From contig CAZHIP010000002.1 in the NCBI GenBank assembly GCA_964532925.1, forward strand, positions 21,127 to 85,126: DNA of 64,000 nucleotides. The letters are read 5' to 3'. The notes below the pieces were generated by a model. It worked only from the letters and a program-made list of their open reading frames with translations, ran no database searches and was not told the DNA's origin. Origin of the DNA: an uncultured Gammaproteobacteria bacterium. Lineage in GTDB: Bacteria > Patescibacteriota > Patescibacteriia > GWA2-47-26. Of this stretch, positions 37,412 through 39,832 are shown piece after piece. Within the stretch, counting starts at the first letter, position 1, and each line of letters begins with the position of its first letter. Position numbers and translations under genes: made by a program.

Positions 37412-37440
37412 TTGACAAGCGTACGAACGTACGCCACAAT
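37412..37440 (+). promoter_or_regulatory. lexA promoter (TTGACA-N17-CACAAT) with an embedded SOS-box-like dyad CGTACGAACGTACG (37420–37433)
   Basis: 14-bp near-palindrome (GTAC-N4-GTAC) sits in the spacer between the -35 and -10 hexamers, the classic LexA autoregulation geometry. Confidence 0.5.
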
Positions 37441-37489
37441 GTGTAGCAGGAGGATTTAAAAATAGTAAGGAACTGGATTCCCGACGCGA

Positions 37490-38086
37490 TTGGGAATGAC
37501 ACACCCTGATATGGATAAATCCTATTTGGATAAAATTCGAGAGTTTTACAAAGAGAATCGGCGGATGCCCAGCCACAGCGAGATTGGGGAAATCACCGGA
37601 CTCAAGTCAAAAGGCTCAACACATAAGCTGGTCAACAAACTTGTCGAACAGCATCGATTAGAAAAAGACACAGCAGGGAAGTTGCTTCCGGGTGCAACAT
37701 TCAACGGTCTTCCGTACGTTGGTTCGTTTCGCGCTGGATGGCCAACACCAGCCGAAGATCAATCGGTTGATACGATTAGCCTCGATGAATACCTTATTGC
37801 TCGTCCAGAAGCCACCAGTATTGCAAAGGTAGAAGGGGACTCCATGATCGAAGCAGGTATTTTGCCTGGCGACATGGTTCTCTTGGAGCGCGGATTGCAG
37901 GTACGCAATAACGACATTGTACTAGCCCGCGTTGATACTGATTTTACTCTCAAATACTATCGCAAAGAAAAGGGGAAACCGGCTCGCTTGGTGGGAGCAA
38001 ATCGTAAATACAAATGGCCGATTGTCGCACTCGAACAGATTGAGATTATTGCAGTTGTTCGCGGAGTTATTCGGAAGACACGCTAA
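37490..38086 (+). CDS. lexA: LexA repressor (S24 peptidase)
   Basis: N-terminal wHTH; RAG cleavage site; catalytic Ser in VEGDSMIEAGI and Lys in FTLKYY. Confidence 0.85.
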   Translation: MGMTHPDMDKSYLDKIREFYKENRRMPSHSEIGEITGLKSKGSTHKLVNKLVEQHRLEKDTAGKLLPGATFNGLPYVGSFRAGWPTPAEDQSVDTISLDEYLIARPEATSIAKVEGDSMIEAGILPGDMVLLERGLQVRNNDIVLARVDTDFTLKYYRKEKGKPARLVGANRKYKWPIVALEQIEIIAVVRGVIRKTR

Positions 38087-38090
38087 CAGT

Positions 38091-38657
38091 GTGCAAAAGA
38101 CAATCGAGATCCTGGGGCAAACAATCGAATACACGTTTAAGCAAAGCGCTCGGTCGCGCGGTGTCAGGTTAGCTATACATGCAGATGGTCGCTTTGTCGT
38201 CACTGCGTCGCCCCGCGTGAGCGTGAAACGGATCGACCAATTCATACAAACAAAAGCCGCATGGATTACCCAAACCACCGAGCGAGTTGCCAAAGCACCT
38301 AAAAAACAAACGCTGGGCGAAGGAACCCGCCGAGAGTACCTCCAACAGAGAAAAGAGGTGCTTGCACTCGCAACCGACCGATTGAAACATTTCAACCAGA
38401 TCTACGGTTTCAAGTACAAAAAAATTACCATCCGCAACACTAAGTCGCGCTGGGGTAGCTGCTCGCGGAAAGGCAATATCAGTTTTGTCTACAAGATCTT
38501 ATTTCTTACACCCGAACAATCCGACTACATTATTGTCCACGAACTTTGTCACCTCGGCGCATTTAACCACTCGAAAAAGTTTTGGGATTTAGTGGCAAAA
38601 ACAATGCCGAATCACCGTGAAATTCGAAGATCTCTAAAAAAGTTTACTCTGTCATGA
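38091..38657 (+). CDS. DUF45/YgjP-family zinc metalloprotease (HExxH), GTG start 5 nt after the lexA stop
   Basis: RSRWGSCS...VHELCHLGAFNHSKKFW is the hallmark of the YgjP/DUF45 (WLM-like) family. Confidence 0.7.
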   Translation: MQKTIEILGQTIEYTFKQSARSRGVRLAIHADGRFVVTASPRVSVKRIDQFIQTKAAWITQTTERVAKAPKKQTLGEGTRREYLQQRKEVLALATDRLKHFNQIYGFKYKKITIRNTKSRWGSCSRKGNISFVYKILFLTPEQSDYIIVHELCHLGAFNHSKKFWDLVAKTMPNHREIRRSLKKFTLS

Positions 38658-38680
38658 GTTGGTGGTGGTATAATGAGTCT

Positions 38681-39250
38681 ATGAAGATCAGTCGATCTCT
38701 TGGTTCGCGAATCGTGCTGCTCATAGGATGCCTCATTGCAGGCATCCTATTTGTTGTTGATAAACCTACCTCAGAGCTGGATGTGAGTGCACCCATTACC
38801 GTAAATACCCGCGAAGAACCTCTACCAGAAGGCTCATATCGCGTTATAAAGACTACCGATGGCGACACTATCGACGTAGAAATAGCAGGAAAAAGTCAGC
38901 GCGTACGTCTCCTGGGTGTTGATACCCCCGAAACAAAAGATCCGCGCAAGCCGGTGCAATGTTTTGGAAAAGAAGCCTCTGCATATACAAAACGGATGCT
39001 TGAGAATACCGTTGTGCGACTTGAAATTGACCCAACACAAGATGCCACTGATATGTATGGCCGCTGGTTGCGATACGTATTTTTACCCGACGGCACAAAT
39101 TTTAACGAGCAACTGATTGCGCAAGGATACGCCTACGAATATACATTCAAAACACCAGGCCAATATCACGCAGCATTCAAGGCAGCTGAGCAAACAGCAC
39201 GCAATGAACGACGAGGATTGTGGGCGAGCGATGCCTGCAATACAAAATAA
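38681..39250 (+). CDS. Secreted or membrane-anchored thermonuclease (staphylococcal-nuclease-like)
   Basis: Signal-anchor then VIKTTDGDTIDVE...RVRLLGVDTPE...YGRWLRYVF...NEQLIAQGYA SNase motifs; possible upstream ATG at 38654 overlapping the previous stop. Confidence 0.75.
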   Translation: MKISRSLGSRIVLLIGCLIAGILFVVDKPTSELDVSAPITVNTREEPLPEGSYRVIKTTDGDTIDVEIAGKSQRVRLLGVDTPETKDPRKPVQCFGKEASAYTKRMLENTVVRLEIDPTQDATDMYGRWLRYVFLPDGTNFNEQLIAQGYAYEYTFKTPGQYHAAFKAAEQTARNERRGLWASDACNTK

Positions 39251-39252
39251 AT

Positions 39253-39798
39253 ATGCGGAACCTAAAAAATATTGCCGCATCCGTACTCATGGTAAGCACG
39301 TTGTTTATATCCATGCGCACAATCAAAACATATCAAGCAACGAGCAAAACAACGAAACTGCACGCATTGGCTGGCAAAGATTTTGAAATGCTTACTCCGA
39401 CAAAATTCGAAAACTGCACATCACAACATACCCAACCAGACATAGCATGCACACCGGGCGCAGTATTCACTGATATCCTACGTGGTGATCTTTGCAAGCG
39501 GGGATATGCGAGCACAGTAAAAGCTGTTTCAACAAAAATAAAAACCGCCACATACACCGCGTACGGCATTACAGAAGAAGAAAAGAAAAATTATATCCTC
39601 GACCGATTCGTTCCTATCAACCTTGGCGGCACGAACGACCAATCAAATATCTGGCCGCAATTAACAGGGAACAGCGCCAATAAAAATAAAGTTGAAAGTT
39701 TCCTGTTCGAAGAAATGTGCGCAGGTCGAATCACTGTTTCCCAGTCACAAGAACTCGTGAGTACGAAATGGCAAAAAATCTATAACCTGATCAACTAA
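39253..39798 (+). CDS. Secreted protein with a degenerate HNH-nuclease-like motif
   Basis: Signal peptide; DRFVPINLGGTNDQSNIWPQ resembles the HNH core (D-H-I-P...GG...N...N) but the first His is replaced. Confidence 0.45.
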   Translation: MRNLKNIAASVLMVSTLFISMRTIKTYQATSKTTKLHALAGKDFEMLTPTKFENCTSQHTQPDIACTPGAVFTDILRGDLCKRGYASTVKAVSTKIKTATYTAYGITEEEKKNYILDRFVPINLGGTNDQSNIWPQLTGNSANKNKVESFLFEEMCAGRITVSQSQELVSTKWQKIYNLIN

Positions 39799-39799
39799 A

Positions 39800-39832
39800 A
39801 AAGCCCCGCGCGTAGCAGGGCTTTTTTAGTTC
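39800..39832. terminator. Bidirectional terminator closing the lexA operon and the convergent minus-strand gene
   Basis: aaaaagccccgcgcgtagcagggctttttt. Confidence 0.55.

Follow-up and report, generated by a model that had tools for sequence, protein, structure and literature searches.

A 64-kb stretch of contig CAZHIP010000002.1, the whole of which is referred to here as the window, contains a lexA gene followed on the same strand by genes encoding a YgjP-like (DUF45) zinc metallopeptidase, a nuclease of the staphylococcal type with a predicted membrane anchor (SNase) and a small protein with a predicted HNH-like fold, which we refer to as P4. All named relatives of the enolase encoded in the window are assigned to Candidatus Paceibacterota, Nomurabacteria or 'Patescibacteria group'. 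The reading that we favour, with some reserve, is that the four genes make up an autoregulated lexA operon in a Paceibacterota bacterium (Patescibacteria, or candidate phyla radiation, CPR) with a tiny genome, and that this operon is transcribed from the lexA promoter through to the last gene. The features listed in an initial annotation of this locus, which had described it as an operon of the SOS type, were all recovered at the positions given there (Table 1).

Table 1. Position, strand and basis of the features that make up the lexA locus of the window
Feature	Position	Strand	Basis
σ70-like lexA promoter	37412..37440	+	TTGACA, 17-nt spacer, CACAAT; 10/12 matches
Predicted LexA operator CGTACGAACGTACG, GTAC-N4-GTAC	37420..37433	.	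dyad filling the promoter spacer
lexA, 196 aa, winged helix-turn-helix and S24 self-cleaving domain	37496..38086	+	Pfam Peptidase_S24, TIGR00498 alignment
YgjP-like (DUF45) zinc metallopeptidase gene	38091 (GTG)..38657	+	PF01863, HELCH motif
Staphylococcal-type nuclease gene, product membrane-anchored (predicted)	38654..39250 (alternative start ATG 38681)	+	PF00565
P4 gene; product of His-Me-finger (HNH-like) fold, exported or membrane-anchored (predicted), without catalytic histidines	39253..39798	+	181 codons
Intrinsic terminator, bidirectional	39793..39831	.	shared with convergent gene 39842-41626(-)

A divergent LexA heads the array

The LexA of the window matches PF00717 (Peptidase_S24; E = 5e-23), and its residues 8-195 align with TIGR00498 at 93.7 bits, below the cutoff of 110.95; the Pfam model LexA_DNA_bind gave no match to it. 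A profile made from 29 homologous sequences can be aligned with residues 12-198 of E. coli LexA and residues 11-195 of Thermotoga LexA at E of about 1e-29, which covers both the N-terminal winged helix and the S24 domain. All of the 29 aligned sequences have A80-G81, S116 and K153. The initial annotation had called this protein a bona fide LexA, a description upheld by the profile alignment with LexA proteins of solved structure, which is full-length, and by the conservation of the Ala-Gly site and the Ser/Lys dyad. On its sequence we assign it to a divergent LexA subfamily, many members of which are annotated as LexA by JGI or NCBI. As a full-length LexA with these catalytic features it resembles the LexA of Gram-positive type (DinR), from which it differs in scoring under the TIGR00498 trusted cutoff. 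No recA gene was found within the 64-kb window.

The lexA promoter carries a predicted operator of the Cheo type

The lexA promoter is the top-scoring promoter-like site across positions 36900-40100, and the dyad filling its spacer is the sole perfect GNACGWWCGTNC or GTAC-N4-GTAC site in a scan of the 64-kb window. No second credible LexA box was found in the window; matches with one mismatch are intragenic and occur at chance frequency.

For comparison we assembled lexA loci, designated here by numbers with the prefix L: 80 loci from GTDB species representatives, and close relatives added through exact-protein look-up. The best LexA match in the GTDB scan is 50% identical to the LexA of the window, and the close relatives were recovered only by the look-ups. 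Operator counts are based on the 78 lexA loci having upstream sequence. In 53 of these 78 orthologous promoters, a palindromic GNAC-N4-GTNC lies between a TTGACA-like -35 element and a TATAAT-like -10 element, a layout like that of the window. The dyad reads GAAC-N4-GTTC in 44 of the 53, GTAC-N4-GTAC in five and GGAC-N4-GTCC in four. With the symmetry filter dropped, the pairing at positions 2 and 11 is A/T in 41 promoters, T/A in four, G/C in three, T/T in three and C/T in two. Examples are the lexA promoters of L086 (TTGACAGT-CGTACGTTCGTACT-CCTATAAT), L169 (TTGACAGG-CGTACGTTCGTACG-CTATATT), L083 (TTGCCAGG-CGGACGTTCGTCCG-CCTATAAT) and L018 (TTGCAGGT-GAACGATCGTTC-ACCTATACT).

GAAC-N4-GTTC is the classic Cheo box of Gram-positive bacteria. 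The dyad of the window does not have the half-sites of that consensus, its GTAC half-site being shared with four other loci, but it agrees exactly with the GAAC-N4-GTTC sites of the orthologues in spacing, in symmetry and in its place within the promoter; in the orthologues the Cheo sequence itself is found exactly in 44 of the 78 promoters. Like the operators of DinR, it is a dyad of 12-14 bp with the same 4-bp centre and spacing, and it overlaps the promoter of its own regulator gene. We regard it, on these comparisons, as a minor variant of the long-known Cheo box and not as a new motif. The GTAC-N4-GTAC dyad that the initial annotation had pointed out in the promoter spacer is present, and the conservation of its position across orthologous promoters indicates that it is a real, if predicted, LexA operator. 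Autoregulation of lexA is very probable. Regulator and operator are thus already known in kind, as a LexA of the Cheo-box type acting on a textbook autoregulated lexA gene.

The comparison also bears on how the operator is read. The LexA of the window and that of L083, which are 88% identical, have the helix SKGSTHKLVNKL in common, while their operators are GTAC/GTAC and GGAC/GTCC (L083:5875-5888), respectively. Because LexA proteins sharing this helix face both GTAC and GGAC operators, position 2 of the half-site appears to be read loosely; it is probably not read strictly, and it seems free to drift, yet changes often hit both arms. The operator of L004 reads TATAC-GATC-GTATA.

L083 contains two near-identical promoter-operator cassettes of 45 bp, at 2795-2840 and 5855-5897 (…CTTCCTCTTGCCNGGC-GGACGTTCGTCC-GCCTAYAAT), one ahead of each of lexA and an operon for an N6_N4 DNA methyltransferase. 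As this locus carries the cassette twice, the dyad can be taken as a regulon motif, which suggests that the methyltransferase belongs to the SOS regulon of this relative.

A perfect AGGAGG occurs at 37448-37453, about 43 nt 5' of the lexA ATG of the window, and no start codon follows it within usable reach. No clear Shine-Dalgarno sequence precedes the start of lexA, and leaders of 55-110 nt are also found in L086 and L083.

Anatomy of the four-gene array

With the starts given in Table 1, the four genes are joined by a 4-nt gap, a 4-nt overlap and a 2-nt gap; gene callers place the start of the SNase gene at ATG 38681, which leaves 23 nt after ygjP. Such short gaps are compatible with co-transcription. 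No canonical or strong terminator was found between the lexA promoter and 39793, where a terminator hairpin begins (AAAAAAGCCCCGC...GCAGGGCTTTTTT; dG -22.7 kcal/mol, z -7.2). Its arms are 17 nt long and 94% complementary, and none of 200 shuffled sequences folds as well. Because it is flanked by an A-tract and a T-tract, this terminator can work in both directions. The single-transcript layout proposed in the initial annotation agrees with this arrangement, in which a strong terminator stands at the end of the array and none within it. Judged by this anatomy, meaningful co-transcription of all four genes is moderately probable.

On the upstream side, the small gene 5' of lexA (37182-37388) encodes a DUF5652 protein (Pfam). 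We found no terminator in the stretch from this gene to the lexA promoter, and upstream transcripts might therefore run on into lexA. Directly after the stop codon of an ABC-transporter gene, positions 37106-37137 hold a perfect inverted repeat of 12 bp (TATTCCTGCCTA/TAGGCAGGAATA, with an 8-nt loop) that has no T-tract. A scan of the window against Rfam returned tRNAs only.

The four genes have guanine-plus-cytosine (GC) contents of 0.43-0.47, against 0.468 for the window. No phage or plasmid records similar to the locus were found, and PADLOC gave no defence match at the locus besides a generic SNc model. The locus is syntenic with the core genes Pterin_4a, dnaG and rpoD. A horizontally acquired island or mobile element was considered and ruled out, as GC content equals the window mean and similarity to phages or plasmids is lacking.

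Gene order across lexA loci

In about 43 of 82 loci a gene for a Y-family polymerase follows lexA directly or with one small gene in between; L086 and L169, which have GTAC boxes, are among them. No such gene occurs in the 64-kb window. The lexA-Y-family polymerase (dinB/IMS) operons share with the window their promoter-operator layout and a co-directional arrangement of SOS genes headed by lexA (L086, L169, L059 and about 40 others), but in the window the genes that follow lexA are those for YgjP, SNase and P4, and the polymerase gene is missing. An intermediate between the two arrangements is found in L018 (Taylorbacteria; 46% LexA identity), where lexA is followed by a gene of 66 aa, a YgjP gene and a Y-family polymerase gene, with gaps of 0-9 nt after the small open reading frame (ORF). 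Gene order suggests to us that the composition of the window operon is a lineage-specific variant of the common operon of lexA and a Y-family polymerase gene.

Two sets of relatives are closer to the window. In L083/L084 (88% LexA identity) the order is lexA-YgjP-TspO-SNase-P4 homologue-350 aa-Pterin_4a-dnaG, and in L085 (69%) it is lexA-YgjP-DUF1761-SNase. The pairing of lexA with YgjP recurs in four lineages, and we take the conserved core, as judged from synteny, to be lexA and the cytoplasmic YgjP-like zincin. The succession from lexA to SNase is limited to the narrow clade of the window, and a P4 gene behind that for SNase is confined to the window and its closest relative. The linkage of lexA with nucleases put forward in the initial annotation therefore holds in part: it is kept in L083/L084 and L085, but it is confined to this narrow clade, has unrelated genes inserted into it in relatives and is absent from 78 of the 80 other lexA loci. 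L059 (Kaiserbacteria) was examined as independent support for the linkage and set aside, as its SNase gene is divergent from lexA and a divergent promoter overlapping the LexA box was not found.

Two further observations concern the surroundings of lexA and P4. An ORF of about 66 aa (motif …EAR.HK.LL…, with no Pfam match) lies directly 5' of lexA in L005, L012, L016, L021, L028, L030-L032 and L034 and between lexA and YgjP in L018 (5607-5807). This ORF, which the window lacks, may represent a partner gene of lexA that has escaped recognition. On the 3' side, positions 39842-43454 of the window hold, on the minus strand, genes for a 594-aa protein without Pfam match and for a fusion protein of Memo and PGA_cap. 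Together with a HAD-like gene they stand between P4 and Pterin_4a-dnaG-rpoD. In L083 and L168 the P4 homologue is followed by Pterin_4a/dnaG genes on the same strand, directly or one gene later, a comparison which suggests a local insertion or inversion 3' of P4 in the window.

The YgjP-like zincin

The product of the second gene belongs to the YgjP-like family PF01863 (E = 3.6e-42; 145.2 bits against a cutoff of 26). The motif H150-E151-L-C-H154 is invariant in the YgjP alignment (A3), and the protein has no hydrophobic segment, which indicates a cytoplasmic location. Around the HExxH helix there are weak matches to WLM (E = 0.0025) and SprT-like (E = 0.015). Its sole solved relative is proabylysin (E = 3e-7), and a single-sequence AlphaFold2 (AF2) model reached a predicted local distance difference test score (pLDDT) of 63.8, too poor for a fold search.

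The ygjP gene adjoins lexA in L083/L084, L085 and L018, and adjoins a gene for a Y-family polymerase in L018 and L087. L087 is the closest of 80 metagenomic YgjP loci (53% identity), and there the start of ygjP overlaps (ATGA) the stop of the polymerase gene (the pair at 2916-4567). In L018 the YgjP-like gene directly precedes the polymerase gene (the pair at 5808-7619); the order is the reverse of that in L087 and the partnership alike. No convincing LexA box was found upstream of the IMS-YgjP operon of L087. Because it is repeatedly linked to the pair of lexA and translesion polymerase in this part of the CPR, the YgjP-like zincin is the more credible member of an SOS unit, and it is probably a damage-response protease. 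What it would act on is a matter of guesswork, with DNA-protein crosslinks or stalled proteins as candidates.

Two known types of system offer parallels. With ImmA/ImmR and IrrE/DdrO the locus shares the placing of an HExxH zincin gene next to that of a damage-responsive repressor. The weak matches to WLM and SprT-like, together with the translesion polymerase linkage in L018 and L087, recall the DNA-protein-crosslink proteases of the SprT/Wss1 type. However, the zincin of the window belongs to the YgjP-like or minigluzincin family PF01863, and not to ImmA/IrrE (COG2856) or SprT, and both analogies are leads only.

Two proteins with predicted N-terminal anchors

The third gene encodes a member of PF00565 (E = 9.6e-27; 94 bits against a cutoff of 21), which in a phmmer alignment matches S. 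aureus nuclease (2f0w) at E = 2e-26. The residues D21, R35, D40, T41, E43 and R87 (S. aureus numbering) are all aligned and identical. Residues 17-35 include a strongly hydrophobic segment, RIVLLIGCLIAGILFVV, of 16-17 residues (Kyte-Doolittle mean 2.44). It comes after basic residues and shows no clear AXA site for cleavage, so that we read it as a probable signal anchor and the SNase, most likely, as a signal-anchored ectonuclease. A lipoprotein was also considered, since LIGC resembles a lipobox, and rejected, because hydrophobic residues continue past the Cys and make a transmembrane anchor likelier.

In fold, in the full set of Ca2+-binding and catalytic residues and in its predicted N-terminal anchor, the SNase resembles S. 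aureus Nuc and the SNc nucleases of Patescibacteria; it differs from them in sitting in an array headed by lexA. One survey found secreted nucleases of the SNc type in 15 of 28 metagenome-assembled genomes of Patescibacteria and proposed a role in nucleobase salvage (PMC11495043). The salvage role suggested in the initial annotation fits these published views, and its coupling to the SOS response is the part that we infer. A literature search that did not take in a dedicated study of the SOS network of Patescibacteria turned up no account of an SNase-type ectonuclease under the control of LexA. An adaptive SOS role for the nuclease is, in our assessment, a doubtful proposition.

P4 has no match in Pfam or NCBIfam, and its family is likewise absent from NCBIfam. 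Gene callers start the protein at Met21; homologues conserve the longer N-terminus (MRNLKNIAASVLMV, MRNFKKLAISIAAIG, MKQFKNSTLAVLMVM), which makes 39253 the likelier start. The family is large and uncurated, with 3973 cluster representatives at E<=0.001 and the consensus CTPGA...C..GY...R.VS...K..VY..YG...Y.xDH(F/L)ISL.LGGSND..NLWPE...EKD.VENYLH..VC. Among 40 sampled members, weak matches were obtained to Pfam HNH in 24, to HNH_5 in 12 and to Endonuclea_NS_2 in nine, and a hydrophobic segment is present at the N-terminus of 125 of 145 members starting with Met. For the P4 of the window, AF2 gave a confident model with a pLDDT of 95.9.

The HNH-like core that the initial annotation had proposed for the fourth product is thus present as a prediction, but the HNH histidines are missing. 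Position 118, which is the general-base His of the D-H motif in 144 of 158 relatives, is Arg in the window and its nearest relatives, and position 152, the His of YLH in 112 of 158, is Phe in the window and Phe or Tyr in the nearest relatives. P4 retains D117, N132, K144 and E148, and its orthologue in L083 is also without the CTPG segment. The loss of the catalytic histidines, in spite of a predicted HNH-like fold, makes it very improbable that P4 works as an HNH nuclease. P4 is probably no nuclease, at least by the canonical His-Me mechanism; at the cell surface it may bind DNA or serve a structural purpose. The picture of two exported nucleases is correct in that both proteins have predicted hydrophobic anchors at the N-terminus, and fails for P4, in which both histidines are replaced.

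Does the array form one regulated unit?

Several lines of evidence weigh against the reading of the locus as a four-gene SOS operon, and most of them bear at the same time on another explanation, in which the SOS unit is lexA, perhaps with ygjP, while SNase and P4 would be surface proteins with housekeeping tasks, made mainly from internal promoters or by read-through, which would owe their position to extreme gene packing and have no functional tie to DNA damage. The window is 91% coding, with 56 of its 67 long ORFs on one strand, and same-strand neighbours have a median gap of 10.5 bp, 23 of 46 pairs lying at most 10 bp apart. Because gaps of a few bases are the norm of this genome, those within the array are weak evidence for functional coupling, and co-transcription of the four genes, for which the anatomy is the argument, is to be called plausible. 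In L083 the co-directional array extends from lexA to dnaG without a convincing terminator, so that one array need not mean one function. Genes for unrelated membrane proteins (TspO, DUF1761) are interposed between ygjP and SNase in relatives, and among the 80 other loci an SNase gene is found in the neighbourhood of lexA in just two (L059 and L023). Homologues of P4 are found behind genes for CYTH and a nucleotidyltransferase (L167), directly before Pterin_4a (L168) and in an unrelated context (L002). The core itself is touched by the finding that none of the 80 metagenomic YgjP loci adjoins lexA and none has a LexA box.

Two internal features could decouple expression within the array. A promoter-like site inside lexA (37932) has 9/12 matches, and an 11-bp perfect hairpin (38723-38750; dG -19.6 kcal/mol) with the tail UUUGUUGUUG lies in the region encoding the transmembrane segment of SNase. 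The hairpin sequence is conserved in L085; in L083 a hairpin of other sequence, without a U-tract, lies about as far from the start codon. As the window holds 31 inverted repeats of comparable size, and as the L083 hairpin has no U-tract, we do not take this structure for an internal terminator; it may act as an attenuator or have arisen by chance. Sites such as that at 37932 occur at the count expected by chance, and the array has no strong internal promoter and no canonical terminator ahead of 39793. The order lexA-ygjP-(x)-SNase is moreover kept down to 69% LexA identity, and passive read-through from the derepressed lexA promoter would by itself lift expression downstream. With these points on the two sides, we regard it as possible, although not as the better account, that SNase and P4 are passengers behind a shorter SOS unit.

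The adjacency of lexA and ygjP in four lineages also allows the zincin to be seen as a dedicated protease of LexA, which would cleave or clear LexA or its fragments beside, or instead of, self-cleavage stimulated by RecA. A repressor with a neighbouring metalloprotease is a known regulatory design, that of ImmA/ImmR and IrrE/DdrO. In the LexA of the window, however, the machinery for self-cleavage is complete, PF01863 is distinct from the ImmA/IrrE family (COG2856), the 80 other YgjP loci are without a lexA neighbour and the partner of YgjP in L087 is a polymerase and not lexA. We therefore hold a role of this kind to be improbable. Less probable still is that the locus produces SOS-induced secreted nuclease toxins against competitors or hosts, in the manner of colicins or pyocins, as the initial annotation had also entertained. 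Colicins with HNH DNase domains are regulated by LexA, and, as in colicins E2/E7/E9 and the S-type pyocins, an SOS promoter stands here ahead of proteins of nuclease fold with predicted export signals, which would act outside the cytoplasm. Between 37100 and 40100, however, there is no ORF or domain for immunity, lysis, receptor binding or translocation. The SNase would be held by a transmembrane helix and not released, P4 is without its catalytic His, and the chromosomal setting, with its synteny to core genes, its GC content at the window mean, its lack of similarity to phages and plasmids and the silence of PADLOC beyond the generic SNc model, speaks against such a role. A colicin-like role was for these reasons dropped as a serious contender.

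Proposed mechanism and implications

In the established mechanism of LexA, a dimer represses the promoter and self-cleavage stimulated by RecA derepresses it. Applied to an autoregulated four-gene operon, this would mean that a LexA dimer binds the CGTACGAACGTACG dyad between -35 and -10 and blocks RNA polymerase, and that DNA damage leads to RecA-stimulated self-cleavage of LexA at Ala80-Gly81 (through Ser116/Lys153), by which the promoter would be freed. Transcription would then most likely continue through the four packed genes to the terminator at 39793-39831, and the YgjP-like zincin, the ectonuclease and P4 would rise alongside lexA after damage. The SNase would be an ordinary surface nuclease of Patescibacteria that digests external nucleic acids for salvage, made damage-inducible by its position in the operon on top of any basal expression. 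Together with the catalytically degenerate HNH-like P4, it would be a lineage-specific addition to the array.

A more far-reaching version can be outlined, which we consider unlikely. It supposes that the SOS operon was rebuilt in one lineage of Paceibacterota, in which the zincin would work with LexA and translesion polymerase as a damage-response protease, for example by clearing DNA-protein crosslinks before bypass, and in which LexA would also control the SNase and a dead DNA-binding partner of HNH fold. If this were true, DNA damage would boost the scavenging or uptake of extracellular DNA, and so would supply precursors for repair to a cell unable to make nucleotides.

The linkage of YgjP with lexA and polymerase is the most useful and the more robust lead to come from this locus, as it gives the large DUF45 family, to which no function is assigned, a testable context in DNA damage. 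If the surface nuclease is indeed damage-inducible, the SOS response would be tied to nucleotide scavenging in ultra-small auxotrophic bacteria, which would be a plausible and testable adaptation.

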